From Vermamoeba vermiformis (lineage: Eukaryota), in the NCBI GenBank assembly GCA_045837725.1, contig JBEWZL010000179.1:434001-498000 (forward strand): a stretch of 64,000 bases of DNA. The letters run 5' to 3'. How positions within the stretch are numbered: position 1 is the stretch's first letter; each line of letters opens with the position of its first letter. The notes under the pieces are model-generated. The model was not told the DNA's origin, did no database searches, and worked only from the letters and a program-made list of their open reading frames with translations. The position numbers were made by a program, and so were the translations under genes. Shown in pieces: positions 1-60,559 of this stretch.

Positions 1-558
1 GACCAAAAGATGGCTGATCTACGTTGCGGGGCTCCCGGACCGAGGGCTGGAAAAAAAAACTGTAGTTCCATTCCAAACTACCAGATCCGGTTGAAATGAG
101 CGCTACGCTTGGTGGCAACTACTTAAATAAACAAATCTAGCAATGGGTTATTTAGCGTGCAAGCGTACCCGATCCGGAAAAAGAAATACTATGATGTAAG
201 CAAGTATTTAATTAATTCACATAACATTTAAATAATAGCGATTACCTTATTACTTGTTTGGCTGGCAATGACAATTTCGTGCGGCTTGACTTGGATTCTT
301 TCTGCAGATGGATCATAGTTAGATTGCTTCGAAGCAAAATTGAATTAAAATGAATAAGGAAAATAGGATAAAAATCGGCGTACGAAACTTCTTCATTTAA
401 ATAATACCAAACTTCTGCAACGGGCAATGACAGAAATCCCAATTAGAATTGCCGATCTTTTTTGTTCGCTCTCGTTATTATGCCAGGGCAGGAATAAAGA
501 TAAATAGCTGCGTAATTATTAAGTTAGCTAATATTAATCGCACAACAAAACTGAAAAG

Positions 559-2086
559 ATGTCAGATCAACAATTCCAAGGATACGCTGTTTTTGAACCA
601 AAGGGCCAATTGTCTAAGTGGTCTTATACTCCTCGCCCCCTCGGTGCTCGTGATGTCGAGATTGAAATTACTCACTGCGGCATGTGCGCAAGCGGTACGT
701 ACCAAAATACCTGAAAGTTTTTCTTCTGTACTAAATCCAGATTCAGACCTGCACCAGATCGACTCAGGCTGGGGTCCCTCTATCTATCCTATGATTCCTG
801 GTACGTACCATTATAAAATTGTCTTTGCCATGGACTAACCATTCCTAATAGGCCACGAAATCGTCGGTCACGTTACTAAGGTCGGATCTGACGTGACACG
901 CGTCAAAGTTGGTAAGCCACTAAACGCCCTACTACTACAATATTATATTAAAAGCCGGGACCTATTGCTCACCATCTAACTATAGGACAACGTGTCGGTG
1001 TTGGAGCTCAATGCCAGTCGTGTCATCAGTGCACTGAGTGCAAAGAGCACCTCGAGCCCTATTGCAAGAAGAGCGTCAACACGTACAACGGAAAGTTCGA
1101 GGACGGCACTCCCTCGTACGGAGGTTACGCCAAGTAAGTCCGCTTTGCAATAGCTATTTACGATTTGTTAGTAATTGCATTGCTCTAATTGGATCTGGTC
1201 GATCAAACAAAAATTTCGCATAGAATTCAATTTCGTACAGACTTGATGATATTTCCGTACTTACTTGCCTTTTTAGGAATGTTCGTGTCGACGAGCGCTT
1301 CACTTTTGTCGTGCCTGAGAACTTGAAGTCAGAGGTCAGCCCACGCAAGATCTCGGACTCCTTGAACTTACTCATACCTTTTCCTTACTAGGAAGTTGCT
1401 CCATTGTTCTGCGCAGGTGCCACTGTTTTCTCGCCACTGACTCACTTCGGAGCAGGCCCTGGCAAAAAGGTCGGAATTATTGGTATCGGAGGTCTGGGTC
1501 ATTTGGGTCTCAAGTTTGCACGAGCATTGGGTGCTGAAGTTTACGCCATTTCAACTTCTGCTTCGAAACAAGGAGAGGCCAAGAAACTTGGTGCGCATCA
1601 CTTCATTAACACCAAAGATAAGGACAGCCTTGCTAAGGTACGTTTAAGTTTTTGCTGATCGATCTTAAATCTAACGAATTAACACTCCGTAGTATCAAGA
1701 CCAACTCGACTTAATCGTCAGCACGTTGAACCACGACGTGGATTGGCAAATGTACTTCAGTTTAATGAAACGTGATGGAACTTTCGTTATTGTAGGCATC
1801 CCCGAAGAAAAACTCAAGATCCCTGCCTTCTCTATCATCGGAAAGTAAGTCAACAAGCTAAATACTATCGGATAGTAAATATACTTACGAAATATTTAGA
1901 CGATTGAAGTTTGCTGGTTCTTCCATCGGCAGTCCTAACGAGATCGAGCAAATGTTGAAGCTCGCTAGCAAGGATAATATCGTGGCTAATACTCAAGTAT
2001 GGCCGTTCGAGAAGGTAAATGAAGCTATTGCTGCCTTTAGAGAGGGTAAACCTCGATACCGTTACGTGTTGCAAATCAAGCAGTAG
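559..2086 (+). CDS. Zinc-dependent alcohol dehydrogenase (cinnamyl-ADH/YahK-like), multi-exon
   Basis: Spliced motifs HCGMCASDLH, PMIPGHEIVG, structural-Zn cysteines CQSCHQCTEC, GIGGLGHLG Rossmann motif and C-terminal KPRYRYVL; GT-AG introns. Confidence 0.9.
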
Positions 2087-2449
2087 ATTCTGTAGTGAAA
2101 TAATTAATAGGCCCTCGAGCGTATTAATTAAGAATAAAGCGAATTATATATGCTTTCAAATTAGCTGTGTAAGAAAATAATTTTGAATAATCAATTTAAT
2201 TTTGGGCGGGTCAAATCTGCTCGCGGGTCGTCTAGAAAGTTGAAAGGGCTTCTACAACGTGCACATTAAGGATGAATTAACATAGTGTGTCTTATTGTGA
2301 AGATATTTGTGAGGTCCGTGGTGTTGTCGTTGTTCGTTGTTCGAATTTTAGTTTGTTCACGAAAAGATCCTGAAAACCACCACTGGCGGTTTAAAAATTT
2401 ATTTAGCACTGTACAATACCTCATGACATATATTATTTAATACTCAACA

Positions 2450-5400
2450 ATGTGCCGCTGTTCGTGTAAATCATTCCTCAATATATTTTTTATGGCCTTG
2501 TTGACGGCTACCACTGCCACGACTATTGGTCTCGCGGTACAGTTTACTCTCAAGTAAGATAATTATAAATATTAATATAAAAATATACTCATAATTACAA
2601 TAAGAGAATGGACGTAGATCGGCTATTTTTATTTCTATTTAATTTTCATATTTCAATTAAATTGACGGTTTGTTACAGAGCACCTTTCTATGAATTATTT
2701 GCTGGTGCGTTAGCAATGTCAATTATAAGCATGGTTCTAGCTTGTAAGTAATTTCAGTTTTCAAGTAACGGATCTGAAAAACGCGAAATTTTGCGGGTAA
2801 TTTTTGAGCTATTCCTAACGCACAGTTCAAGCTCAATAACGCTAAAATTATTATATTTAACTCTCCGAAACAGGTTTCTCGTGCTATTACGCATCCAGAA
2901 CAAAAACCAAAGACGAAGAAATGCGCGCCAACTATAATTTAGAACTCGTTGAAAAAGATGCTCAAGGCGAGGGTGATGATGGCGAGAAAGACCCCGAGAC
3001 ACTGCGCATTAAACAAAAATTGGCTCGTAAAGCTGCTCGTACTGAGTACCGCAATAAGTGCATGGGTACGTAGATCCCGACAATTTTCAAACGAATTGTA
3101 GCAAAAATACAACATACGACCTTCTATTATATATTGAAGGCGGCAACTATATTAAGTATATGCTATTTATAGAGCGATTTGCGCGAAGACCAAATCAGAA
3201 ATGCCTCATCTTGTTGTACCTTTGCATCAGTTTTGTGTGGTTCGTCTGCGCCCTGTACTTTGCTTATCATTTGCGCACTGATCGATACGAGAATGTTACT
3301 GGCCATATTATTGGTGCTATTAACGATCACTCGGTCAAGTTGTGGTGGAGACGTCCAGATCACGAGACACTGGTAAGTGGTGGATCCACCTTAACTTTAG
3401 GAATTATACAAGTGACCTACTATACATATGGATAATAATAATCGACACCTAGTATCAGTATACAGTATTGTGCCTGATTACTAATGCTCTGTTTAGTACG
3501 TGGAATATCGCAAACCTGATGACCGAGAGGGATACTGGCGAACAAGTGCAATGGTGCGTAGTCAATAATACAGACAACTCTACGATAGACATATGTACAT
3601 ATTATGTCTTATTTGATATATCAATAATATGCGTTGTTCTAATCTAATTTCGTTCGCAGGTCAAGATAGATCCGAGCAACGACTACACGGCCGTTGTTAC
3701 ACTAACAGGATTGAATTCCGACACGTTGTACAGCTACAGACCAGTATGGGACGGTGATGAACAGAACACGAATCAAAACGAGACTATTGGTCGTGCTGTG
3801 GATCCTCATCAGTACACGATCACTACGATGGTACCTCCTCAAAGCAGCGTGGCAGATCTGGTCTTTGTATTTGGCTCTTGCACTCTGAGTAAGTACTAGC
3901 ACCACAAATACCTCAAAAAAATTATAAGATTCATGAAGTAGTACTACTACTAGCACTTGCTATGAAATTGTTTTTTACGGGCGTGGATCGAGATCGGATC
4001 TTCGCAGCAAAGCACAGGGAAGCAAATTCGTGATAGTATGGCAAGTAGTGACCCGAACACGATGTAGCATCGCGTCTCGGGCACGACCACACTAACAAGA
4101 ATGCACCGCTTCCCGTCCGATCAGCGAAGTTAAGCTTGTTCAGGCTTTCTTAGTACTGGGGTAGGAGACTACCTGGGAATCGGAGGTGTTGTGCTCTTTA
4201 CTTTTTGCTTTTTGACTCTTTGATCCTTCCTTCGCTGATACATTCAGTCCCTTATTTTTACGACAGCTTATTTTTGGATCGGATCGAAAAATTAACTGGA
4301 TCTTTTTTTTAGAACACTTAGGAGGAACTCTTGAAGGGTAGATAACCACTGATAGTACCGGTATTATTGGCCGTATATTAACGTAATTTTTAGCTTCAAG
4401 AAGATGGGAGAAAAGAACCCTCGGTTTGGATTGGTAAGAAAAAACACGCAGCGGATCTGCTGAGCGGCTACTAATTATTATTATGTTTTTAGCTCATTGG
4501 TGATCAAATCTACGCCGATTATCCTACCTATTTGGGTGCCTCTAAAGAAGACTACGAAGTCAAGTACCGCGAGGTGGTCGCAGATGAGCATTTCTCGACA
4601 TTTGCTTCTACGACCCCTATCTTCCAAATGTGTAAGTATAGTACTTATATAAGGCATATAGAGTATTTGCCTAAGACAAGACTAACGTAGTTATGCAGTT
4701 GATGACCATGAAATCATCAATGACTGGGACCAACAACAAGCAGATCCGTACCCAGCAGTAAGTCACCTATACGACTCTTAGTATTGTATTAGTATTAAGA
4801 CCGACCTCTTGTAGGCCATTGGTGCCTGGTACGAATACGCAGGCTCGCACAATCCAAGTCCCATTCGTGCCAAGTCGCACTATTACACGTTCGAATACGG
4901 CAATGTAAGTCACTTTTAATTACTATATTTGGAAGCTTAATTAATACTAATGTTCATTGTAGGTTCCTTTCTTCGTATTAGACACTCGTTCATACAGATC
5001 TAAGAACTCGATGGTAAGTCTCATGATGGACGAGATCTTACACGAGATCTGGCCTTGACTGATCATCTTTTTACAGCACGAGAGTCCTCGTAAGACGATG
5101 TTAGGCGCATTGCAATTGCAAGACTTGAAGAATTGGTTGTTGGCTAAGAACTCCACGACATTCAAGGTGAGTGACACTTTGACACTTCAATTTTTTCACG
5201 GTGTAAACTTTATCGAACTGATATTAACATGTAAATAACGTTTAGTTCATCGTGTCGAGTGTGCCTTTCACGTTGAATTCAAACTGGGGTGACAGCTGGT
5301 CAAGTTTTGAGACTGAACGAGAAGCCATTCTGCGCTTCATCTCTGACAACAAAATTAACGGCGTGTTGATTCTCAGCGGTGACACGCATTGGGGTGCTGC

Positions 5401-5711
5401 TTTCCGTCTCGCAAGAGGTACCTGTCGGCCGACACACTTGCCTAAAAAGGAAATATAGATCTAACACTTTACCTTTTGCAGGTGTTTACGAATTCGTGGC
5501 CTCACCGATCGATGCGTTTACTGTCACTAAGAGCACTACTGACGTGAGTGATTGGGAATTATTCTCAGATGACACGCAGCGACACTTTGGCTTGATCCGT
5601 GTCAACACTAAAGACACCTCGCCCTGGGTCCGATTTGAACTCTATGGCCAAAATTCTGATAAAGCTTTGCACGGTGTTTCACTGAAACCGAGCGATCTGA
5701 TCGTCAGTTAA
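2450..5711 (+). CDS. PhoD-family alkaline phosphatase with N-terminal hydrophobic segments, multi-exon
   Basis: Motifs FGSC, GDQIYAD, DDHEIINDW, LDTRSYR, ILSGDTHW, EFVASP; the start codon is tentative. Confidence 0.85.
4079..4197 (+). rRNA. 5S rRNA gene nested in a PhoD intron
   Basis: 119 nt; helix I GGGCACGAC/GTTGTGCTC; conserved CCGATC..CGAAGTTAAGC and TTAGTACTGG..GGAGAC..CTGGGAA; followed by T-runs (Pol III terminator). Confidence 0.95.
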
Positions 5712-14551: not shown

Positions 14552-16759
14552 ATGGAAGCAAAGCCAAGAACGGAAAACGCAGCAAGAACAACAGAGAGGT
14601 GAGATCCAATCCAGCCTCGTTCATTTTCAAATTAGAAATTAATATTTTATTTGATAGAAACTTCGAAGTACCGCAGTCAATCAGAGACGAGTTGTTCAAG
14701 CTAATCACGACCAGAGTAAAAGAGGAACAGATCTTGAATATTTATTTGTGGGGCTCCAGGTAACTTCAAAACCATTAAATATATTTTCTATTATTTTTAT
14801 CTGCATTAGACTATTTTTCGAGACCAGTAGATCTGTTAGCAAATCGGCGAAAAATTACAGAATTCAAAACTGTGTTTAAATTTCACTAACCGTTGGTTAT
14901 TATAGATTTTGGGGTACCCACAATGAAGCCTCCGATTGGGACTTTGTAACGATAGTTAAAGACTACGTCCAGCCGAAAAAAGATTCAACCGTTATCGGAA
15001 CGAACGTGGATGTGTCAATCTACGATGTTAAATACTTTGATAGTACGTTAAACTATTCATTTCAATTCTATTGATACTAATTTCTTCGAAGATTTAATCG
15101 TAGAACATGTCCCATGGGCGCTACAGTTGCTTTGGTGGCCTGAAAATGCGACGCTTCAAAAGCATTACGACATTAAATTTCACTGCTACAGAGTTCGTTT
15201 GCGACACGCGCTATTGATTAATTCGCAAGTCAATGGCCAGCAACTAAAGTCCTACTTCCTCAACAACGAGATCATGCCCGCCGTCAAACGCGCATACCAC
15301 GTGATTCAGATGGCCGTTCTGATGCAGCAAATTGCCATTCATGGAAAAATTGTCGATTACTTTGCTGCCACCGACTACCTTCAGCGATTCAAAGAAGTGA
15401 GCGGCGATTGGAAGACTTTTCATGAATACTGGAAGAAGACGTACTATCAAGTGGTCGACGTTGAATTTCTAAATATAGTAGACGCCTATTTGAAATTCGA
15501 AGCAGAAGTTACTGACACTAGACCACTCGCAAAAACGATTGCTTATATTAAGGAGTATGGCCTCAAAGCCTTGGACGTGGATCTGGCGATCATCGTAAGG
15601 AGATCCGAAAAATTTCCTAATTTGGTGCACTTCCATCACGAACGAGAGTATACACCTATGAACTCTTTGATTGGCGCAGAGTGCAACGGAATAATTCTCG
15701 ACGAGAGCAAGGATTGGTCCATTGTCTGCATGCCCTACATCCAGTTTTACTCGGAGTCAAACTTCTCCGGTCTTGTCGCTGAAATTGATTGGAACACGCC
15801 ACTACAAGTGACAGAGCAATTGGATGGCTACAAAGCGACTCTATATCGATACAACGATGAATGGCACGTCGCGACTGAACTCTCGCCTGACGGCAGTGAG
15901 GTCCTCGAGGATTACAATGGCGAGAAGGTCTTGTTTAGAGATTTGTTTTGGCGCTTGTTCAAGTCGAAAGGCTACGAGCTGCCTGATCCGAAGGAGAACT
16001 GCAACTATATGTTCGAACTGATTAGTGTCAACAATAGAGACATTGTCTGGTATGCTGAAGACTCTCTTACACTGCACGGTGTTAGAAAGCTCGAAGGAGA
16101 ATTCAAAGAATTCGATGCAAAGCCTGTCGCGGAGAAATACAAGTGGCAATTTGTGCGCGAGATCCATTTGCGGAAAGTGTCAAAAGATACAATCAACGCT
16201 GCTCTTCTGACGGAAAAGAATTGCTGTGGGTATATCATACGAGATCAGAACTTTGCCAGAATTATCTTCCGACATCCGTTGGTGAAGGGGTTGCTGAAGG
16301 TCAAATTTGGTCAACTCGTGTCTAAACAACGGCTCGAAATATTCAAGCTCCTCTGTGGATTTAGCGATCAAGAAACACTAATGACCTATCCGTACCCTGA
16401 AACACAAGAAATGTTCGACTACGCAAAGGACAAGTACGTGGATCTCTGCAACAAAGTCAATAAGACATACGGCGACTTGAAAGCTATCGCGGATATGAAG
16501 GTATTTTCAGCTGAAGCGAACAAATTCGGCGAATTGAAGCACTTCATATTCGCTATGAAAAACGCAAAGAGCGATGACGCAGGTCCTCTTTTCCGCAAAC
16601 AAGGTACGTTGCTAATTATTGTATTATAACCCCTCCTCGTGCTAACACTATTGCTTGGTAGTCTCTGCGAATGTGTACAAGTTCATGCAATTGGTAGTGA
16701 ACTATTGGATGAACGAGCACCCGCAAGATGACGAGGAAGAGAAGTTTTGTTTCAAATAA
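14552..16759 (+). CDS. Pol-beta-type nucleotidyltransferase fused to a T4 Rnl1-like RNA ligase domain (motif I Lys replaced by Gln)
   Basis: N-terminal IYLWGSRFWGTHNEASDWDF..NVDVSIY; C-terminal ECNGIILD..WSIVCMPYIQFY..IDW..EQLDGY..WHVAT..YMFELIS. Confidence 0.75.
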
Positions 16760-17120
16760 ACATGACCTTTGTGACCTTATTGTACGACGTCTAGCCTCTG
16801 TAGCACCATCAAATGAGCAGAATCAAATCTTGTTTTTCATATTAGGCCCTGACAGTACGTTAGGACGAATATTAAATTTCATTTGGCTGAACTTGTAAAC
16901 GAAACTGCCATTGCTCTTCCGCTCACAACTCGAATTTGTCAACCTACCTGACTCACCTACCATTCAACTCCTACCAGCTCAAATTAAATAGGGTTGATGA
17001 GGCAGAAGCAGTATTAAAAATAAAATTAATAAACGGAAACCTTTTTTTTCATGAACTCACTCGGTCGCATTATCTCGCGTTGCTTAACAACATTAACAAC
17101 AACTAAACAAATAATTAAAA

Positions 17121-18173
17121 ATGGCTCTCCGTTTGGCTCTTCGTAAGACCTTTGCTTCGGTAAGTAAACGAATGATCATCCGCGCGATGCAATCCGGATT
17201 GTCGATCTATCGGCGATTTCCAGCATACTAAACGAAGTCCTGTAAATGTAGATCAAGTCTGTTACCCGCCAAGAAGGCAGCTCTCAAGGTAAGTTTTCGG
17301 TGACTGACCAAATCTAATCCATTTTTTTATTGAAAATTGTAGAATGTAAATAATTGCATAATTAATATAGCCATTTGCCGAATTGATTTATTACCCGCGA
17401 ACTACGAATTTATCGTGCATTAGAAGCAAATATTAATTTTTTGTTAGGTGGTAACGTTCCTCGTGGTGGCTTCGGCGTTAACAAGGTTATCATCGTCGGC
17501 AACCTCGGTCGTGAACCCGAAATTAAGGTAGGCCTATTAATATGACAAAGTTCAAGTTAGAAATAAATCTCCGTGGATCGAGCAAATTACTAACGAATTA
17601 TTAGCAATTTGAAAACAACACTGTTGCCACTTTCCCTCTTGCCACCAACGAATATTGGACTGATAAGGATGGTAACCAAAAGACCAGGTACGTCCGAATC
17701 TAATCCCGTAATTTTCATGAATCCCACTAATTATCGTTGGACAGAACCGAATGGCACAGAGTCGTTCTCTACGGAGAAAAGTACGCTTCAGTTATCAAGG
17801 CCGCCCAAAAGGGGTACGCACGAAATTTTCTATCGCTAGCGCATCTCTGATCAATTTTTAGATCCAAGATCTACTTGGAAGGTTCTTTGAGAACTCGCAA
17901 ATACACTGACAAGAAGGAAATCCAACGAAGCGTTACTGAAGTTGTTCTTCAACCCAACAAGGGTGCGTAACCAGTTCACTCACGATCGAACACAAAAAAA
18001 TACCAAAAATCAGAAATAATTCTAAATAATACAAAATACATAAAATATCGTTATATGACGACTAATTACCCACAGGTTACATCAACATTGTTCTCAACGC
18101 CACCAGACCCGCTGAAGAAGGCGAGCACTCCGAACAACAACAACAACAAGAAACTCCCCAAGAGAGCCAGTAA
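17121..18173 (+). CDS. Mitochondrial single-stranded DNA-binding protein (bacterial SSB type)
   Basis: Presequence-like MALRLALRKTFAS; VNKVIIVGNLGREPE, ETEWHRVV, KGSKIYLEGSLRTRKYTDK. Confidence 0.9.
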
Positions 18174-28806: not shown

Positions 28807-31260
28807 TTACTTTTCAAGTTTGAGCTGCACAGCTTCTAATCTCTCGGCGGCTCGTTTGACAGCAGGATTGATCTCCAACACGAGCTTGTATTGTTCCGCT
28901 GCCGCCGTCAAATCTCCTTTGGCTTCTAAAGTCTCGCCAATCTCGAGGATATGGACGTAGCGGAAGATATCAAACGGCGCGTTGTTCATGATCTTCTCCA
29001 TCTGCACCAGCGCTTCATCATACTTGCCTAAAATGGTATAATAAGTTACCAATAATACTCTAAATAATTATTCATAATAATTTCAGACCTTCGAGGCGAT
29101 TAATCAGAGCATACACGAAAGATCCGATTCCATATTCTTGTTGAAGAAATTCAGCCATTTGCTTCGCTTCAATAATATTGCCAGTACGAACTAGTAATAT
29201 TCCTTTAGTCTTCATGGCCATTACGAACTCTCCTTTGTCTCCACTCTTCTGCGAGACTTGGATCGCGACGTCAACGGCTTTTAAGGCTTCATCGTACCTT
29301 TTCTATTCGTACCATTAGAACCATTTGAATATATAATGACATTAGGTACCATCGTTTCCAAGTATAAAGCCTCTTGAAGCCTGAATGCGGATTGATTTGG
29401 ATTTTCTTGGATGCGTTCCCTAACGAACGCCAAGCCTTCTTCAAAACGTTGGCTACAATAAATATAAATTAATATGCTGTTAATATATATGCTAGGCTTA
29501 CTCTGCAAAGTATAAATGATAAGCAAGAATTGGATTATCGGCCGTTAGGGTGTAGTATTTGTAACCAGCCAAAAACTCATCTCGGTATCGCTTCAATTTA
29601 ACGGAAATAATTGCTTTGAGATAATAAAGAGACGGATCGTTGCTATTTAACTCAATAGCCTTATCAATGGATTTCAAAGCCAGATCGTGTTGGTTCAGCT
29701 CATCTTCAAAAAAAATAAAATGGTTAATATGCAGGAAAAGTGAAAATAGTATCTTACAATAATTGTTTGCGAGCTTGTAATGCGCCTGGTATATATTAGG
29801 ATCCAATTCTATTGTTTTGAGAAGCATCGGAACTCCATCCGCCGGTGGCAAGATTATTCCCAAATTGAACCAGCCTGCAACAAGCTTCGGGTCAACTTCA
29901 AGTGCTAATTTGTAGCAATATGCAGCATTTTCGATGGCACCCTCGTTGCTGTAGATTCCTCCCATGTAGACCCAAGCAGCAACATTTCGAGGTAAATTGG
30001 TGAGCCAGATCTGCAATAATTGCTTCGCTGAATCGAAGTCATTCTATACGTAAATGGTAAGTACTTGTTATTAATAACGTCGTCGAGAATTAGCTACTTT
30101 AGATCCGGATGTCCCTGTTAAAATGCTTTTTGAATTAGGAACTTACTCTAGTGACAAAGAAGTTCACTATCTCGGACAAATCATTATCATATGAGGTACT
30201 ATGCTTTGGTAATAGTCTTAAAGCTTTTCCGAAATATTCTATGCCTTCCTTTGCTTTGTTTTCTTTTTCGGTCAAATGTCTGCCGTACAATACTAAAAAA
30301 AGATGATTCTCGGTAGCATCTGGGCACTCAAAAGCGGTTTTACGGAATTCATCTAAAAGAAAGTTAGATCGACTACTGAAATGTTCTAAAATCGCTTTAC
30401 CTGAACCGGTAACAATCCATAACGCTATCCATGCTGCACTTTTAGTTGGATCTATTTTAGTAGCTTGTTTAAGGTAAAATACGGCTTCATTCGCTTTTTT
30501 GTGTACGGACAAAGCCTGGCCATAACAATACGTAACGTAGTAATTGTTCGGAAAGGCTTTTGATGCCTCATCAAACAATTTATATATTGCAGCGAAATCT
30601 TCGGTCGATGTCAAGAGAGTATCCATAACACGTGTCAGCGCGGCCAGAAATTGTTCGGATGTAGGATCAAGACGCTTCAGTCCAGCAATAAAGTCATCCT
30701 GCCAAACTTCTCGTTGTAGGTATATATCTAAAACAGCTGTATCAAGCATTAATATTTGTATTGGTACTTCTGACGGTCTTACTCTTCGATGAAAGTGAGT
30801 TTAAGATCTCATCTGGCGTTACACTCTTTTCATAGGCTTTTGTTGCACAATCAAGAGCACTATTAAGATCGCCTTCTCTCCAAAGGTCTGACACGTGTTG
30901 CATTAATTCATCTGGAAGATCATTAGCGACAAAGACCGGATCTTATTTTATTGCCTTACCATAAGTTTCAGATTTATCATTATTAGATGTGCTGTAATAT
31001 TTTACAATGGATCCTGGCGACCGATGATCTATATTCGTGATACATTCTTTTAAAATATTTAATTAAAATCAAAAATAATTCTTTCAAATTGCTATCTCAC
31101 CAAATCCAGTCCTGGTCGTAGTCAATGAGATATTGGCGTAATTATTAGAATTTTTTGTTGTTCTTTTAACGCCGCCAAAGATTGACCGGTCGTTTAGCCT
31201 AGATGCCGCTCGAGCTGTTTGTCGGACGATAGATTGAAATCGCCCTATTATTCTGTGCAT
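28807..31260 (-). CDS. TPR-repeat protein with possible mitochondrial presequence
   Basis: Repeats such as AWVYMGGIY..AAYCYKLALEVDP, GWFNLG, ALKSIDKAIELNS; Arg-rich N-terminus MHRIIGRFQSIVRQTAR. Confidence 0.75.
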
Positions 31261-31393
31261 GTTCTTTGCTTGGAGGAACAAAGCAGAACTAAATTTTAAA
31301 TGAAAACGGAATTTACTGCAATGAACTCAGTGACGTAAAGACAGTTAGTTAACATTAGAGATGCTTGCTTAAAATCTTTTGTTTATTTAAAAA

Positions 31394-32788
31394 TTATTCG
31401 TCCTCATCTTCGGCCTCATCTTCATCATCTTCATTATCCTCGGAGCTCTTATTATCTTTTTCTTTCTTATCGTCCCCACTTTCATCGACTTTGATGAGTT
31501 TCTGTTCTTTAGCCCAAGCACCGATAGTTTGCGCGATCTGGTCGTTATCGAGGGTCACACCTAAGAAATCTTTGACTTTCTTCTTTGCGCCTTGATTAAA
31601 CAACGCGATCCAGCCATTAATACTATCAATTTTAGCACCAGTAATCTTCTGGATCTGTTGCGGAGTTTTGCCTTCGATATGCAACGCCAAGCACATGTGG
31701 ATCTTGCCCTTTTTAATCTTTGCAGGCAACGAGATGTATCGATAGGGCTTCATAACATATAAGGTCTGACTTTCTTCTTTTTTCTTCATGGCTAAACCGA
31801 CACGAGCGGATTTGACAATTTCTCTCTTCGGCAAATCTTCGTTAGGCTTGATATATAATTTGCTCTTATTAGTGGCGCTGAAATCGAAGCCCTTCACAAA
31901 GTCGGCAATGTTGTCGGTGCCGTTCAGTGAAAGAATGTGGTTTACACTCAAGCAAGGCCCGTCAATGATCTTGCCGTCCGTCAAGCTTTCAATGCCACGA
32001 ATCAAAATGCCGCCAAAACCCTCCTATAATAATACAATAGTATTAGCGCTGTTCACTGACAGTTAATCCGGATGTGTCAAATCCAGATTTCAATACTATG
32101 CTATTCCAGAGAGATAAAAAATAATCATATGATTGTCACTAACGTATGAAATACTATTAAGATGTTAATAGCTTACGTTCGCAATGCCAAATGTCACATC
32201 CAAGCCCTTGTAAGTTCCGCTGCGGTACTTGCCACCAGTCTTGTGGAAATACCACTGAGCGCATGTCTGTTGCATAGCATCGCAATGGCTGAAGGGATCC
32301 ATGTGATTATGACCCGTATAATAGAATTCAATTTCAACAAATCTGTGAGACCTGCCAAAAATACCGAAAAATTAGTTTACGGTCCTTACATATATAAATG
32401 ATAGTAATTTGTTGGTCGGAGTGCATAAAATGGAAAATAAAAATAAAGAATTAAAGCAGAAAATGCAACGGTAACTTTTTTTAAATATTGGTTGAACTTA
32501 CTTATTATTAACTTCGATTACGCATTTGTTCAATAATATATCAGCGATCTCGTCGAATTTTTTCTCGTATTCTTCGATGGTTTTCAAGGGCTTGGGATCC
32601 ATATTCAAAATATCTTTTAACTCAAATCTGTAAACCGCAACGATTTGTTAGCGCAAGAGATTATATTTACATAAAATATTAATCACGTACGAAGCTGTTT
32701 TCATTTTCTTGTTTGGGCTTGCATCAGCGGTATCTTCGGCTGTTTCTTCACGAGGGCGCTTAGGAGCAAAGAAGTTCTTAATAGACAT
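31394..32788 (-). CDS. 3-methyladenine (MPG/AAG)-like DNA glycosylase-fold protein with N-terminal PIP-like motif and acidic tail
   Basis: EIEFY..HMDPFSH..QWYFH..GTYKGLDVTFG, GGILIRGIE..IDGPC, SARVGL, PYRY. Confidence 0.55.
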
Positions 32789-39037: not shown

Positions 39038-40373
39038 TTAATTAAGAGACACGATGATACCCTTGTCCTTGATACCACAAACATTGTTGAAGCGACCAAT
39101 GCGAATGAAACCGTTCTCGCCCCAAGTGGTGTCCCAGCTGTTGCGAATGTTCCAGTACTTGACACCTTTGTCTGTCACTCCCCAGCCTTTAGCAATACGA
39201 AGTAGCCGACGTTAGTAACATGTGGGTGTAATATGATCGATGAATGTTACCAGTGAGCAGCACGGCATGGTTGCGATGTCCAGTCCAGCAACCTCGTTCA
39301 ATGACTCCTGAAAAAAAAAAAAGGTAAGAATTTTGCAAATAGAAGCGTAATAGGACGTACCTTTCTTATAAGTCTTCCATTTAGTAGCGTCAATAGCTAT
39401 AGGCATAGGACCGTACTTTCTCAAGACTTCCATGAAGTGAGTTTCAGAGGGACGAACTCCGTACCAATGGCCGATCTTGCCAGGTCTGGCAGCAGTAGTG
39501 TCATAATCACATTTGCCAGTAATGCCTTGATAAGGGTACGTCGATTCTAGGACCAAACCCTTGGATTTGACGTAGTTGAGTGCCAGTCCGGGCAAACCTC
39601 CTTTACATCCAGCAAGATAAAGACCTTTGGCACAGCTAACGAGTTGCTGCACTGACAATATAGGCGCTTTACCAGTCGCAATACCAATAGCACATTCTAC
39701 GGCCTCGACAGCACTTTCAGTGATTCATTACTACATCCGTTCACAATGTTCCTTATGAAAGACAGTATTGCATATACTAGAACCTCAAACTTACGCGTGA
39801 GCCCAGCAGCTACCGCATTTGCCTTGCGCCTTCACAGGAGTACAATTAGTGCTATTATACCTGGCAAAGATAGAAATTAGAGTTACATCCGGATGCCAGT
39901 TGAATTTACAAGCGTTGGATCTTACCACTCAAAGTTATCAGGGAGCTGATAGAACGATGCAAAGCTAGTATCATTAACATAGGTGACGTTGGCGTTAGGA
40001 AAGTCTTCAGAAGTTCCTTGAAATGTTGCGAACTCGTCATCTGTCAAGTCCATAAACTGAGTCACGCCAAAGAGCGCATGCGGATTCAATTTATTCATTT
40101 GCTCGGCTTGTTTCATATTTTGCTGCAGTAGAGTATTAGATTTAAAACGTAACGGAAGTATTAGCGGAGCTCGATCGGATTCCGAAGGTAAAGCTAGCTT
40201 ACCTGAAATACGCCCAATCTATAAGCTTCTTCTTTTGGATCAGCATAAAACTTTCCGTGCTCTGCTTTGAATTGTTCGAAGAGTTGTTGGACGGCCAAAG
40301 AGTCACCAACAACGACTGGGATCGTTGCCAAGATTACAACCAAACTTGCGAGAAGCAATAATTTATGGTGCAT
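39038..40373 (-). CDS. Papain-family (C1A) cysteine protease, copy 2
   Basis: Same exon structure and catalytic motifs as copy 1. Confidence 0.93.
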
Positions 40374-40682: not shown

Positions 40683-41183
40683 CTATTCGCCAAAAGTCAA
40701 CTCCATTATAGCAGAAATGATTTCTCCGTCATGCTTTCGCAAAGCTTCGAACGCATTCCAGCGAGGCTTATTACCACTATGTTCGACTACTAGTTCAAGG
40801 TTCTCTGGCCATCTATGTTCTTTCAGACAGGAGGCAAAATTTTTGATCCTCTTTCGGATGTACCTCGTAGTTTTTCTTCTTCCAGCGTCACGCGCTACAA
40901 AGTAAGTCCAAATATCAAATTTATGTCGATTAGCTATCAAATATTTCAAATACGCAAGGTAGCCTCGGTGCGCCAACAAAATAGCCCAATCGCGTAAAGA
41001 GAATTTTGCTGGAAGATCTCTTATGCAAAGCGATGCTATCTGTTTCATACTCTTCGACACTTGCATCAAAACGCACTTTAATAATATTCGGTCCATAAGG
41101 GCGCTGTTTTCCACCAGATCAAGATCTGCGTCACATTGCGAAAAGATCTCGCGCCAAATGTCTGTGGGCAACTGATATAAATC
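40683..41183 (-). CDS. F-box-like protein, main exon (possible first exon 42826-42837 on the far side of the LTR element)
   Basis: DLYQLPTDIWREIF..VSKSMK F-box-like start and ankyrin-like LAHRGYLAYLKYL; AG acceptor at 41184-41185. Confidence 0.5.
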   Translation of the reverse strand, partial: DLYQLPTDIWREIFSQCDADLDLVENSALMDRILLKCVLMQVSKSMKQIASLCIRDLPAKFSLRDWAILLAHRGYLAYLKYLIANRHKFDIWTYFVARDAGRRKTTRYIRKRIKNFASCLKEHRWPENLELVVEHSGNKPRWNAFEALRKHDGEIISAIMELTFGE

Positions 41184-41269
41184 CTTTAAAACAATTCTAT
41201 TAATTATTTCTAATAGTTTCGTAATTGATTGATAAAGAATAGTTGATTTTCTAAAAGACTACGAGATCT

Positions 41270-45800: not shown

Positions 45801-48800
45801 AAGATATGCTGGACTGACTTCAATATTTTCATAGTTTGTCCTTGTGATTGAGCCACGACGAGGTCAATTTCAACCATATTCAACAGTCGTTGATAAGCCA
45901 ATGAACTCAACGCAGGGTCAGTGCCTGAGAACGCCTTCGTTAACAACCACGTGATTCTTTCTTCCGCCGGTCTTGCGTTCAGTTCGGCATCGATCGACAC
46001 GAACTTGCTCTCTTTCAACTGCGCGAAGTCTTGTTGCGCGCTGAAATCAAACTCGACCTCGGTGTCCATGGAAGACAATGATCCGTTGCTAAAAAAATTG
46101 ATTAATTAACTGAATAATATTACCGGACCAATAGGACTTACGTGTTGTTGTAACTAAAAAGCTTCAATAACTTGTCACTGCCGATAATGTCCATAGAGTT
46201 GTAGATCATAACTATTTCCACGAACTGATCAACACTGATTCCATTCGTCTCCAATAAGTCCGTCAATTTCTTCACATAACTAGGGTCACTAGCCGCAGTT
46301 TCAAATAGATCAGACTTGTCTAGTCGACTTAAGATGGCCTTGGCAGCATCAAAGTTGAGTCCATAAGAGCCGATAACTACAATCAGATCTTCTTTGGATA
46401 AGAACGATATGACTGAAACGGCCAAAACTTCGTGTGGACTTCTCGCCAGTCTCATTGTCAGTGCTGAATCGGGTTGATAAGTGTCACTTGTTCTTTCTGA
46501 GAGGATCGCTGTCATATCGTCCACGAGGCCGTCCAATAGTTCTTTAGTCTCAGAGTCAATAGGGACATCACATCGATTGAAGTCTATGAAGAGATGTTAA
46601 TACAAAGAGTACCAATGTTACAGCGAGTAATGTTACCGAATATAAGCAATTCTAAAATAGCTTCAATCATTGTCTTTTTCATCGTGAGTTTTTTGCCCTT
46701 CAGAACAACTTCCGCTGTTGATGCATCGCTCTTGACCTCCTAAACATTATTAGTATAGCTACTAATAGCTTTGCTACTCTACGTACTTGTTTGTCGCTGG
46801 TCTTTATGTAGTTGTAGCCATCAAAGAGTATCTTCAAGAACAACGAGTACACGGTGGAATCATGGAACATGCGAGTGACTGCAAGTCTTCGAGAACGAAT
46901 CAGACCCGAAATTTCCTGTTATCGTATTAGCACCGTCAATCTAAGGATGACACGTGTCATACCATTGCCACTGGCAAGTGCTCTCCGTCTTTATGCTCGT
47001 AGATGAATAAAAGGTAGTTGAAAATGGTCTCAATGTCTGTTTCGTGGACTAAAGCAGCGAGTAATAAATCACTGACGATCTCTTTCGAAAGCTTGAACCA
47101 CTGCAACATGTCGAGCTTGTTGAGCCAATCCAACTTTGCAGTCGCTAGAGCTACTGCTATATTAGTAAGTACTCGGCAAGTGCTCAATATCGACATACCT
47201 CCGCTCATTAGAATCGGTGTTGTAGGCAAAGGAGACTGATTTGCACTCGTGTTGTTTGACGCGTTGTTAGTACTCGCTTCAATCGCACCACTGCTCTCAA
47301 TGACCTCTTCTTCGAAATCTTCCTCCATTTGCGAATTAGTCGAGTGTTGCTCAGGCGTCTTGGCGTTATAATGAATGCCCGAGAATATCAATGCGAGAGA
47401 CTTCTGTGCCATATCACGCTTCACGCGAGAACTGTCGCCCAATCTGCTAATAAAGAACTCTAATATTTCAATTGTCGGGGCACCAGAAGCAGCGCTGAAG
47501 TGACTTCTAATAATCGCCAACATGCGCGGAATTTTCTCCATTGGCACTGTCGTGTAATCGATCTCGTGTTCTGGCTGTTGAGTGCTGTATAGTAAGTAGC
47601 ACAAGCACTGCGTAGGCAAGATATCGAGCGTGTGCTCTTCTTTCTTAACAATAGGACCGAGCCAGCCTAACGAGTCTTTGGGGCCTTGTCTCTTCATAAT
47701 ATCCACCAAGAAATCTGAAAGTAAGTCCATTAGCGATTATTTTGACTCATCTAATTACAATAAAACGTACCCGGATCCCTGCTGGAGCATAACAAGTGAC
47801 CAATATGGAACTCTTTTTCAATGGTCTGTAATCGCTCGATGATATTTGGCGGTGGTCTGCGCGCTGGTTGCAAAGGAGAGTACATCATAAGCTGCTTCAT
47901 CATGACACTGTTTTCTGCGTCAATCTTTGTGACCTCACTGGGACTCTTGAAGACTACTCAAACCGTTAAATATCACTTAAGTTTTTTTGCATTGTTGAAT
48001 GTACTTACATCCCAACAGCTCATTCTCGAAGGACAGGATCTGATCGCCTTCATTTGCAAGGAACTTCTGCTCCTCGGCCGGCGATGGACAGTCCGAGAAT
48101 TGGAACGGCGGGAACTTCCAAGAACGCGTTGTGATCATCTCGATCAAGACTTTGATGGTCGGGAACTGCTGCCATACAGCACGACCAATCGTGGCAGGAT
48201 TGAACGCAGCACAAATCACTAAGATGATGCAGACTTGCCAGAACAGATCACGAATGGCGAATGAGTACTTGGCCTTTGTCTCGTCGCCCAGCTGCTCCAT
48301 GATTGTGTGCGTGAACATTGACAATCGGAACAACGCCTCGCTGAACTGTGGATTTGCCAATTGAATGGGATTGATTCCTTCGCTCGCCTGCAACCGAGTT
48401 ATAATAAGATGCAATTTGGTAGCGTAGAACTTACGTTGACCAATGAAATGGCACGGAGAATGAGCTGATCAATAATAACAAGTGCCTCGTTTTGCGCGAG
48501 TGGCATGTTCTTCAAGTGCATGACAACGATTGAAATGATTGTTTCTTCGAGCACTGGTACGTCTGACTGCACGAGGTTCATCAACAATCGCTCGTATTCA
48601 GGTGCCATCTGATCCTGCGTTAGTGCCTTGTCATTTGTCACCTATGATGACTTACATCGCCAGAAATGTAACTCGAGCTTGGCTCCAATAACAGTAGCTT
48701 TCTGATGACCTTCGCGAAGTAATGTTGCGTGGGCTGTTTGATCAACTCCAAGACAATAGTTTGACTCCACGTGATTGCCTCCAACTACAATCCGACAATT

Positions 48801-58965: not shown

Positions 58966-60559
58966 ATGTCAAAGCGGGCTAAGAGAGGAAGTGCGGCGAG
59001 TACGTGGCATCCGTGTACATAAGTCCAAACTAAAGCTTTGTGTAGCAGGCTTAACAGGCAGCCGAAGGCTATTACGACAACGAGAGGGTTATGATCTTCG
59101 TGATGTACACCCGTATGTTGAAAGTCAAAACTCGGAAGAAGAGGTGATCGAGCAACCAAAACAACGAGGTAATGTCTTTTTTGCCAAGACAAATATTGTT
59201 TACTAACACAATAATTAGGACGAAAGAGAAAGGCGGAGCGTAAGTGAAAATAGAGTAAGAGGTTTGACTAATTTTGCGCGCAGCTGAGGTTTCTGAAGAT
59301 CTGCCAAAGAAGCGATCGAAGCGAGATGGTACGATAGATTGTATGTAACACTAGCTAATATAATGATAGAAAAACGAGAGCGTGAACGCGGTGAGGATAG
59401 CCGAGAAAGAGAGACACTTATCAAACGCGGACTCGAAGCCGATCGTACCAAAGGTGAAAAAGAGAAGCTGCCTGGATACTTACGCGACACCAAATTCAAA
59501 GGATCATACGCAGATCGCTTAAGACGAAGTAAACAGGCTGAAGAAGAAGAGCCGAGTACGATTTTGCAATATTATTCTATTTAAGGTTCGACGTACTAAA
59601 ACTCGTATTAGGACGTGGTAGAACACTTAGAAGAAAGAAGGTTCGTCGTGTCACTATTCCTAAGAGGCTAATTAAGGCTGGTAAGTGATATATTGGTGTT
59701 GTACTACCTTTTCTAACCAAGATCTAGCTCGTAAAAAGAGACAACTCAAGCCGATCGAAGAGCCAGCTTCAACTAATTCAAGCATGGAAGAACTCAGCGA
59801 TCGAGAGAAGCCGACGCCTCTACAAAGAGTATTCGCGGACTACAATAGAGAGTGGTGGCAAGAGAGTCACATCGATATTTACTATGACGATCCGGATGTG
59901 ATCGAGATCAAGGCCTACTACCCTGGCATTCCTCGAGAAGATCTTTCTATTGAGCTCGAGCCTCTTGCCGACAAGAAGATGCTGACACTCACTGCAGTCA
60001 AGATCCGTGACAAAGAGAAGATAGATCAGGGCGACGATGTGCCATACTACTTCGTCGAGCGAAGTTACGGCTCTTTCGTGCGCAGCATTCCTGTGCCCTT
60101 GCATGTAGAGGCATCGCAAATATCGGCTACTTACAACCTCAAAGAGGGCTACTTGCACGTCATCATTCCACGCCCGCGCGAAGTGTCCAGAAAAACGAAG
60201 GACAAAGTCGAGATTAAGGAGCGCGAGCACGAGCAACAGCCGTCCATTACTCGTACTGTTGACGAGGGATTGGTATCTGCCGCAAGCAAATTGCAAAGCA
60301 CTGGTTTTATGGCTGCGGCAAAAGCTGGTGCAGGTGAAGCAGGTGCTGGATCCACGTCCTCACAACCAGGCTCGGATACGGCCCCGTTTACAGGTAGGTC
60401 ATTAGCGATTGCATTGATTGTTATCGGGCTAACGAGGCTGATCTTGCAGGCGTTTCTACTGAGGGTACTTCTGCCTCCAAGGAACCCGAAAATGTTCGCA
60501 AAGCCAAGGAGTTGAGTGAAGCGCCCTTGGCTACGTCTGGCTTTGCGGAAGAAAGCTAA
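58966..60559 (+). CDS. Hsp20/alpha-crystallin domain protein with long charged N-terminus
   Basis: IDIY..IEIKAYYPGIPREDLSIEL..ERSYGSFVRSIPVP..ISATYN..GYLHVIIP; N-terminal exons approximate. Confidence 0.75.

Follow-up and report, generated by a model that had tools for sequence, protein, structure and literature searches.

RNA ligases and their partner nucleotidyltransferases (NTases) are known as the RNA-repair kits of phages and bacteria; to our knowledge, their eukaryotic roles beyond tRNA splicing have barely been explored. Rnl1 binds a broken stem-loop or a tRNA-like end. Among other NTases, HalB makes oligo-dA, and MntA and ANT nucleotidylate a protein or a small molecule. RlaP, as described in PMC12776372, is built of an NTase plus a C-terminal helical domain and extends RNA 3'-OH ends by one or two NMPs. 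In T4 Rnl1, the motif I lysine is the nucleophile, and R54 and K75, which contact the ATP gamma-phosphate, are each essential, according to PMC6379707.

The gene described here lies in a window of 64,000 nucleotides of Vermamoeba vermiformis DNA (contig JBEWZL010000179.1), this being the whole stretch that was analysed. It is a nuclear gene of a eukaryote, interrupted by introns, and encodes a protein of two modules that, on our best explanation, descends from RNA-repair enzymes. It occupies window positions 14552-16759 of the plus strand and comprises five exons and four introns, with a coding sequence of 1896 nt that translates into 631 residues (Table 1). All four introns have GT..AG ends, and the joined form of each is present in transcript-like contigs of run X5. 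RNA raw reads from X21 and X23, which carry the same species label yet are 90-95% alike to the window and have no depth over 15744-15911, also span spliced joints. A tail similar to that of exon 5, of the form W..EH, is found in P0028 and P0043.

Table 1. Features of the gene in window coordinates, with residue numbers where given (dead group, the ten aligned relatives that lack the motif I lysine)
Feature	Window positions	Residues	Strand	Remarks
Start codon ATG	14552		+	stop codon TAA at 16757-16759
Exon 1	14552-14598		+	47 nt; start codon; N-terminal tail, poor conservation
Intron 1	14599-14657		+	joint in X5 contig; position kept in orthologue L027
Exon 2	14658-14759		+	NTase helix 1 to G48-S49, plus two bases of R50
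WGSRFWG		47-53	+	NTase motif; spans intron 2; G48-S49 intact
Intron 2	14760-14905		+	146 nt; joined in 13 X21 and 35 X23 RNA raw reads and one X5 contig
Exon 3	14906-15042		+	NTase catalytic core: SDWDF and NVDVSIYD
SDWDF	14931-14945	59-63	+	catalytic D60 and D62 intact
NVDVSIYD	15003-15026	83-90	+	D85, the third acid, intact
Exon 4	15092-16603		+	1512 nt; NTase end, helical bundle, Rnl1-like domain and most of its C-terminal helical domain
Helical bundle	about 15181-15513		+	within exon 4
Rnl1-like adenylyltransferase-fold domain	about 15520-16302		+	within exon 4
ECNGIILDE	15679-15705	N294	+	N in place of Arg (T4 Rnl1 R54); R in 135/147 relatives, 0/10 of the dead group
CAG codon	15742-15744	Q313	+	in I312-Q313-F-Y-S; family Lys of KFFN (T4 Rnl1 K75)
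CAA codon	15817-15819	Q338	+	in E337-Q338-L-D-G-Y-K; for the motif I lysine nucleophile (T4 Rnl1 K99); K in 137/147 relatives
Degenerate motifs IV and V (presumed)	16222-16278	C474-G475, I487, R489	+	C-G for E-G; I and R for K-x-K; E in 135/147, K in 133/147 and K in 134/147 relatives
Intron 4	16604-16661		+	58 nt; joined in 9 X21 and 8 X23 RNA raw reads and one X5 contig
Exon 5	16662-16759		+	last helices, conserved NYWMNEHP...KFCFK tail, stop codon

The second module, from about residue 239 to 631, has the Rnl1 fold. With the Pfam family PF09511, RNA_lig_T4_1, the exon 4 peptide (P0001) gives 34.5 bits (cut-off 28.3; E 2.4e-8); its orthologues P0002 and P0003 have no match to this family at E <= 1. 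The structural model used was the AF2 model of orthologue P0002 (pLDDT 89). Foldseek matches it to T4 Rnl1 (2c5u_A) at E 3.8e-13, and VIA-align superposes model residues 238-498 on T4 Rnl1 (9do4_B) with Z 20.7 and rmsd 2.8 over 235 residues; Trl1-LIG aligns at Z 17.5-18.3. The phage family phrog_562 (RnlA) matches residues 288-609 at 2.6e-9, from profile position 53 to 370 of 377. As to the Rnl1-type C-terminal domain, this match extends to position 370 of the profile, and the VIA alignment to T4 Rnl1 ends at model residue 498. In searches of PDB sequences, phmmer with P0001 and P0002 gave nothing meaningful, and profile A3 was the only query to reach T4 Rnl1; a search of the ESM Atlas gave no usable match. 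The original prediction, made from the letters and the reading frames, had placed an Rnl1-like domain within a single exon of about 1.5 kb, and both the length of exon 4 and the profile and structural matches to Rnl1 agree with it. The window domain thus shares its fold with T4 Rnl1, including the Rnl1-type N-terminal sub-domain. Unlike T4 Rnl1, it is fused behind an NTase in a spliced eukaryotic gene, and six of its catalytic residues are replaced.

On the residue map drawn from the profile, the counterparts of T4 Rnl1 R54, K75, K99, E227, K240 and K242 are N294, Q313, Q338, C474, I487 and R489, the last three of which we take to be the positions of the motif IV Glu and the motif V Lys-x-Lys. 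Motif I still has its D-G, and motif III its Glu. With lysine in 137 of the 147 aligned relatives, the Gln in motif I is a real departure. The prediction had read motif I as EQLDGY and the KFFN position as QFYS, exactly as we find them, and had proposed a pseudo-ligase on the strength of these two Lys-to-Gln changes; the four further replacements, at the counterparts of R54, E227, K240 and K242, strengthen that proposal. The module is predicted to be unable to form ligase-AMP, since it has lost the nucleophile as well as the residues holding ATP and the metal. It had also been considered that the downstream lysine of DGYK might take over as nucleophile and leave the ligase active. K343 is indeed kept in three close orthologues (as DGYK, DGWK or DGSK). 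However, the other eight members of the dead group have T, L, M, M, L, L, L and Q at the +5 position relative to the lost lysine, and six catalytic positions are lost rather than one, among them the counterparts of R54 and K75, for each of which PMC6379707 reports an essential role in T4 Rnl1. We consider an active ligase very unlikely.

The loss is shared with other proteins. In the alignment of 147 relatives (150 matches were listed, with roughly 1800 further), the motif I lysine is missing from 10 of the 147, among the matches listed, and all ten also lack the Arg. The alignment of each of the ten takes in the helical module that precedes the ligase. The catalytic core of the NTase can be seen in P0002 and P0018 only; each of the remaining eight has a truncated N-terminus or aligns with the helical bundle alone. 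A quick tree places the loss of the lysine as one change (SH-aLRT 71). Conservation of the Gln among homologues, the check that had been suggested, holds in close relatives: it is found in P0002 (85% identity), in P0003 and in L027, an orthologue on a metagenome contig (76% identity) that keeps the four intron positions. Comparison with L027 gives dN/dS values of 0.067 in the ligase core, 0.129 in the C-domain, 0.085 in the NTase, 0.060 in the helical part and about 0.09 overall; they are rough, since dS is 1.3-2.1, near saturation. Among the read differences listed, 29 of 40 are synonymous. A dN/dS of about 0.07 in a dead domain, together with the conserved Gln and gene structure, indicates a conserved pseudo-enzyme under purifying selection and not decay.

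A sequencing error at the CAA codon or a decaying gene would be another explanation, and the codon is indeed unseen in the RNA raw reads, which have no depth there. The codon rests on X1 DNA contigs, possibly from the source sample, with no difference among the matches listed, and on the orthologues. The presence of Gln in two diverged orthologues, an open frame of 631-632 codons, the conserved intron positions, the spliced transcripts and the overall dN/dS all stand against error and decay, which are exceedingly improbable; we reject both the pseudogene and the sequencing-error reading.

The first module, from about residue 18 to 236, is a Pol-beta-fold NTase with three catalytic carboxylates, followed by a helical bundle. 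An intact Pol-beta NTase motif with its third Asp in NVDV had been predicted, followed by a helical region, and both are present: G48-S49, D60/D62 and D85 are all in place, and the AF2 model of P0002 has helices at 128-233. The NTase motifs are kept in P0002, P0018, P0035 and P0045, and the third acid is Asn in P0039 and P0044. All nine fusion members share Lys160 in the helical domain. In Pfam, P0002 is above the gathering score of PF18765 (Polbeta, minimal NTase type; 29.3 against 26.9 bits, E 1e-6); the exon peptides of the window's own NTase, which is split by introns, have no Pfam match when taken singly. Word-indexed searches with the N-terminal half found two close orthologues only, and with profile A4 four proteins. 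The NTase is predicted to be the only catalytic centre of the protein. It might be thought that neither module is catalytic and that the protein serves as a scaffold, or as an RNA-binding factor, for partner enzymes such as the tRNA ligase of the cell. Pseudo-enzymes are frequently parts of complexes, and the Asn of P0039 and P0044, relatives with live ligases, indicates that a change in the triad is tolerated. However, the window protein and its orthologues retain the G-S, the D-x-D and the third Asp, the dN/dS of the NTase is low, and Lys160 does not vary. We regard such a scaffold as decidedly improbable.

Which kind of NTase this is can be judged from several comparisons. Among phage families it matches phrog_388, the family of T4 NrdC.11, at E 5.7e-11 over residues 1-117 only; as a control, T4 NrdC.11 itself matches phrog_388 at 2.2e-135 and PF10127 (RlaP) at 4.6e-12. 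Aligned with T4 NrdC.11 by hhalign, the NTase gives a probability of 78.9% and E 1.6e-5 over 77 columns, in which GS..G....SD.DF and the following ..P.AL.....P segment are aligned. With RlaP (T4 NrdC.11, PfRlaP) it has in common an NTase with three catalytic Asp, a C-terminal helical domain, a physical link to an RNA ligase and, for NrdC.11, a match to phrog_388. PF10127 is matched by none of the nine fusion members at E <= 10, so that the NTase is not a Pfam RlaP; Pfam files it as PF18765/PF01909, and its partner ligase, moreover, is fused and dead. The nearest solved folds of residues 16-220 by VIA-align are Hailong HalB (Z 9.8, 168 residues aligned) and ANT(3'')(9) (Z 8.5), and HalB and ANT/KNTase likewise have an NTase followed by a helical bundle. 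There is no match to them at the level of sequence families, and their partners and contexts differ. Sequence matches to MntA are weak (4e-4 in NCBIfam, below the cut-off; 0.0065 for an MNT antitoxin in the PDB). For the HalB family NF051895, with a cut-off of 190 bits, only P0044 matches (E 0.015, 14.9 bits) and P0002 is not listed; no match attains the NCBIfam cut-off of a HalB or MntA family.

The same NTase type recurs beside live ligases. Fusions of an exonuclease, an NTase and a ligase with a live motif I are P0039, P0045, P0044 and P0035, and further such fusions with a live ligase occur in a giant-virus MAG (L046) and, apparently, in a Myxococcota MAG (L026/L005). The exonuclease is of the RNase T type, by Pfam match in P0039 and P0045 and as read by eye in L026 and L046. 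These fusions and the window protein have the SDWDF type of NTase ahead of the ligase, in the same order; the fusions carry the exonuclease and keep the motif I lysine, whereas the window protein has no exonuclease and its ligase is dead. Two giant-virus BFVD models, from Terrestrivirus (A0A3G4ZN96) and Yasminevirus (A0A5K0U7I7), match near full length, over 647-655 columns, at E 3.6e-29 and 2.6e-32. A stand-alone NTase of 204 residues adjoins a PF09414 ligase. Searches for related loci found none with P0044 in prokaryote genomes and none with P0002 in metagenomes, and in a tblastn search of phages with P0002 the best 25 of 65 records cover the ligase part only.

HalB, ANT and the MntA type, the solved folds nearest to the NTase, take dNTPs alone, small molecules or proteins as substrates, and the fold therefore does not imply that the substrate is RNA. 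Like HalB, the NTase might instead make a nucleotide signal or, like MntA and ANT, nucleotidylate a small molecule or a protein, with the dead ligase as a sensor or regulatory domain for damaged RNA or a nucleotide. The Z scores and the weak MntA matches speak for this. On the other hand, the HalB and MntA cut-offs are unreached, the match is to the phage family of the RlaP-type NrdC.11, and this NTase type is repeatedly fused to, or adjoins, live RNA ligases and is joined to a 3'-5' exonuclease. We hold signalling or nucleotidylation to be unlikely, while allowing it a real chance.

These relatives also bear on the suggestion of a possible horizontal origin. Giant viruses and bacteria are indeed linked to the gene through related fusions with a live ligase; as it carries four conserved spliceosomal introns and has a host-like G+C content, any transfer is old. 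A recent transfer is rejected, given the four introns at positions shared with L027 and a G+C of 0.44 in the coding sequence against 0.405 in the window.

We infer that the NTase is active, that RNA is its substrate and that the dead domain binds this RNA. On this account, to which as a whole we give slightly better than an even chance, the protein is an RNA-repair-derived module in which the NTase would modify RNA 3' ends. The former RNA-sealing ligase domain is probably now only a binding module, as suggested by the loss of nearly all its catalytic residues together with its strong conservation: it would bind RNA, with a broken stem-loop or a tRNA-like end as the likeliest ligand, or otherwise position the substrate. 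The NTase, the candidate sole catalytic centre, would then add nucleotides to the 3'-OH of the bound RNA, and sealing, if any, would be left to another ligase. A broader proposal is possible though doubtful: a widespread old family, at least in eukaryotes (a label that here refers to the window and L027 only), may have turned an RNA-repair ligase into a non-catalytic reader of broken RNA ends that steers an RlaP-like NTase. By tailing 3' ends, such proteins might mark cleaved tRNAs or other RNAs, or mend them, for instance when a ribotoxin or a virus has attacked, and leave sealing or decay to other factors. If true, this would be a damage-sensing pseudo-ligase, a role described for no RNA ligase fold in the literature searched. 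A full-text search for descriptions of an NTase fused to an inactive RNA ligase or pseudo-ligase gave nothing relevant among the matches listed; the key survey, Burroughs and Aravind 2016, lay outside that search.

With its NTase intact and six ligase positions lost under strong purifying selection, the protein amounts to a natural experiment on what the Rnl1 fold does beyond chemistry, presumably the recognition of RNA ends. The giant-virus and bacterial fusions with live ligases are ready proteins for comparison, and the pseudo-ligase gene offers a testable entry into eukaryotic responses to RNA damage.

The NTase-ligase gene of the window is complete (table below). Its four introns (59, 146, 49 and 58 nt) are all GT..AG, and its five exons join into 1896 nt, or 631 codons plus TAA. 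Joined forms of all four introns are present in contigs from sequencing run X5, which are 95-99% identical to the window and for which RNA origin is an automatic guess only. Raw RNA reads carry the intron 2 joint (13 reads in run X21, 35 in X23) and the intron 4 joint (9 and 8 reads, respectively), with no depth across 15744-15911 in either run. Because these reads are 90-95% identical to window 14652-16835, with mostly synonymous differences, despite a species label shared with the best DNA holder, they point either to a diverged strain or cryptic species or to a second copy. In the spliced model, every motif of the original prediction was re-located where it had been placed: G48-S49-R50 (split by intron 2), S59-D60-W-D62-F and N83-V-D85-V in the NTase, and IQFYS and EQLDGYK in the ligase domain, where the CAA codon at 15817-15819 encodes Q338 and the second Gln is Q313.

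Coordinates of the features in the window and at loci of relatives on other contigs
Sequence	Feature	Coordinates	Strand	Match or content
Window	NTase-ligase gene	14552-16759	+	gene model
Window	its exons 1 to 5	14552-14598, 14658-14759, 14906-15042, 15092-16603, 16662-16759	+	gene model
Window	short-exon gene	17122-17545	+	
Window	exon of other gene	29498-32023	-	Cdc23/APC8-type TPRs
Window	exon of other gene	39212-39724	-	papain-family protease
Window	exon of other gene	40683-41258	-	F-box
Window	exon of other gene	46957-47736	-	Integrator subunit 1
Window	exon of other gene	59685-60515	+	Hsp20
L027	intron 4 of orthologue	4430-4486		GC-AG, donor GCAAGC
L004	bacterial ligase locus	1544-4660		two tandem Rnl1-like ligases, then PNKP kinase-phosphatase
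L007	bacterial ligase locus	3010-5517		ligase, then Macro and Thg1
L008	bacterial ligase locus	1943-4044		Rnl2-type ligase adjoining Rnl1-like ligase
L020	bacterial ligase locus			metallophosphoesterase neighbour of ligase
L026	Myxococcota ORF, open at contig end	2263-3720		exonuclease-like and NTase segments (by eye)
L005	Myxococcota ORF, open at contig start	2-1198		ligase

The window is eukaryotic nuclear DNA; ordinary genes of a eukaryotic nucleus code there for Cdc23/APC8, a papain-type protease, an F-box protein, Integrator subunit 1 and Hsp20. G+C is 0.405 for the window and 0.441 for the coding sequence of the NTase-ligase gene. Directly downstream of the latter lies a short-exon gene that begins with ATGGCTCTCCGT; in one frame, its stretch …VIIVGNLGREPEIK… resembles, by eye, a mitochondrial-type single-stranded-DNA-binding protein.

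The C-terminal half of the protein is an Rnl1-fold domain, as had been claimed. The exon 4 peptide matches PF09511 (RNA_lig_T4_1) above the cut-off (E 2.4e-8; 34.5 bits against 28.3), and a match to phrog_562 (RnlA) spans residues 288-609. The orthologue P0002 (85% identity) was modelled with AF2 (147 sequences in the alignment; pLDDT 89, pTM 0.87), and the model has T4 Rnl1 as its top Foldseek match (E 3.8e-13). In VIA-align, residues 238-498 of the model superpose on T4 Rnl1 with Z 20.7 (rmsd 2.8, 235 residues), and fungal Trl1-LIG gives Z 17.5-18.3. In Pfam, however, neither P0002 nor the second close orthologue, P0003, reaches PF09511 at E <= 1, and plain phmmer gave no match among PDB sequences. 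An exhaustive phmmer search returned 1954 relatives at E <= 1e-3, and the 150 listed are mostly stand-alone proteins of ~360 aa in which the two motifs read P[YF]xKFFN and EKLDGS.

The pseudo-ligase originally proposed from two K-to-Q changes is borne out, with further losses. In a profile alignment to T4 Rnl1, which places the columns nearly invariant in the family (147 relatives), the counterparts of K75 (KFFN motif) and K99 (motif I; K in 137/147) are Q313 and Q338. Moreover, N294 replaces R54 of the ECRG motif (R in 135), C474 replaces E227 of the EG motif (E in 135), and I487 and R489 replace K240 and K242 of motif V (K in 133 and 134, respectively). The motif I D-G, the motif III F-E, G475, D480 and R485 are retained. 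As described in PMC6379707, the nucleophile that becomes adenylylated is the lysine of motif I; R54 and K75, both essential, touch the ATP gamma phosphate, and tRNA-loop specificity comes from the C-domain of Rnl1. From its residues, the domain appears catalytically dead, with losses beyond the two changes.

Of the 147 aligned proteins, ten and no more lack the motif I lysine; it is present, by motif scan, in all five long multidomain matches outside that alignment (P0041, P0048, P0051, P0054 and P0120). Conservation of the Gln, the check originally proposed, is found in P0002, P0003 and the orthologue on metagenome contig L027; the other eight members of the lysine-less group carry Trp (P0018, P0071, P0076, P0107), Asn (P0028), Arg (P0033), His (P0043) or Leu (P0074). 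All ten lack the Arg of ECRG, and most also lack motif IV and V residues. The lysine of DGYK, raised earlier as a candidate substitute and thus a possible refutation, is retained in three close orthologues only. In all ten, the helical bundle and linker of the N-terminal half align ahead of the ligase (E 8.2e-35 to 6.7e-4, the weakest being P0071, over residues 197-273 only). Only in P0002 and P0018 can the NTase core with its catalytic residues be made out; eight members are N-terminally cut short or align only in the helical part. One change accounts for the group on a rapid ML tree (60 rows; SH-aLRT 71), a placement made insecure by flagged long branches.

The L027 orthologue corresponds to P0003 and has five exons, 632 aa and the same four intron positions as the window gene; its intron 4 is GC-AG where the window has GT. 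Its protein retains TEQLDGS, ECNG, IQFYS, CCGY and IFR. Nei-Gojobori dN/dS between the two genes, rough because dS is 1.3-2.1 and near saturation, is 0.090 for the whole gene, 0.085 for the NTase, 0.060 for the helical part, 0.067 for the dead ligase core and 0.129 for the C-terminal domain. Among the 40 read differences listed, beyond which there are 108 more, 29 are synonymous and 31 fall at third codon positions. Decay of the ligase domain is rejected by the core ratio and the mainly synonymous read differences, and the domain is instead being maintained.

The N-terminal half is assigned to a minimal NTase plus helical domain of the RlaP/ANT/HalB build on the basis of profile and model matches. 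P0002 matches PF18765 Polbeta above the cut-off (1e-6), PF01909 weakly, and phrog_388 over residues 1-117 (5.7e-11). The RlaP control, T4 NrdC.11, matches PF10127 RlaP (4.6e-12) and is a core phrog_388 member (2.2e-135). By hhalign, the fusion alignment matches NrdC.11 with 78.9% probability (E 1.6e-5) over 77 columns that span GS..G....SD.DF, the third Asp and a P.AL....P segment. In VIA-align, model residues 39-218 give Z 9.8 with HalB and residues 16-220 give Z 8.5 with ANT(3'')(9); bundle 127-226 gives Z ~7.5 with HEPN-like bundles, inside the noise range for helical bundles. The NTase thus appears related to RlaP, yet lies outside the Pfam RlaP family, PF10127 being matched by none of nine fusion members. 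RlaP, as described in PMC12776372 and PMC7824862, takes its name from an association with RNA ligases and adds one or two NMPs onto RNA 3'-OH ends.

NTase-ligase linkage as such is already known. The same NTase type is fused to a ligase whose motifs are intact in three proteins: P0044 has the order NTase-ligase, and P0039 and P0045 have RNase_T exonuclease-NTase-ligase. By alignment, P0035 is a further such case, without a Pfam match. The third NTase acid is Asn in the live-ligase fusions P0039 and P0044 (INAALYD and VNAAIYD; alignment A3), whereas dead-ligase proteins keep Asp, which hints that either catalytic centre may be dispensable, depending on lineage. In a Myxococcota MAG, the L026 ORF has no Pfam match at 1e-5 and its NTase part is 40% identical to P0044; with the L005 ORF, which likewise has bacterial neighbours, we infer that it is probably a single fused gene split by assembly. 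A giant-virus MAG encodes a 671-aa protein with exonuclease, NTase and ligase-like parts by eye and the motif I lysine kept, of which Pfam supports the NTase alone (PF18765, 1.2e-5). In BFVD, the top two matches come from giant viruses and cover nearly the whole model: a Yasminevirus protein of 1081 aa (E 2.6e-32, 655 columns) and a Terrestrivirus 'putative exonuclease' of 794 aa (E 3.6e-29, 647 columns). At one of four NTase-only viral loci examined, an NTase of this type that stands alone (204 aa) adjoins a PF09414 ligase. Neighbours of stand-alone bacterial ligases were scanned at 16 loci (67 ORFs from 17/24 loci); four of these loci have neighbours of RNA-repair type (L004, L007, L008 and L020), and none has a Pol-beta NTase of this type.

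Other domain combinations occur among the long matches. P0041 and P0054 (1244-1341 aa) join an AAA_33 kinase, a dual-specificity phosphatase, an AEP primase-polymerase domain and an Rnl1-like ligase. In P0051 (1012 aa), the ligase precedes a Cid1/MTPAP-type terminal nucleotidyltransferase, an independent fusion in reversed order. An intein with a LAGLIDADG endonuclease interrupts the ligase of P0048 and P0120 shortly past motif I.

In the literature searched, outside which lies the RNA-repair survey of Burroughs and Aravind 2016, we found no description of a conserved eukaryotic fusion between an NTase and a dead Rnl1 domain. Of the horizontal origin suggested earlier, a recent transfer is argued against by the host-like composition of the gene and by its four introns, which are conserved; an old transfer among bacteria, giant viruses and eukaryotes, in either direction, is plausible. 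The gene probably derives from a kit for healing and sealing RNA ends, made up of exonuclease, NTase and ligase; in the lineage of the window gene, the exonuclease is absent, the ligase has turned pseudo-enzyme and the NTase catalytic triad is retained. Since the nearest solved folds of the NTase act on substrates other than RNA, and presentation of RNA to it is itself conjectural, a role in signalling or AMPylation stays alive. The most economical mechanism, by analogy with Rnl1 and broken anticodon loops, would be RNA recognition by the dead ligase: the Rnl1-fold module would still recognise RNA and hand its 3' end to the NTase.
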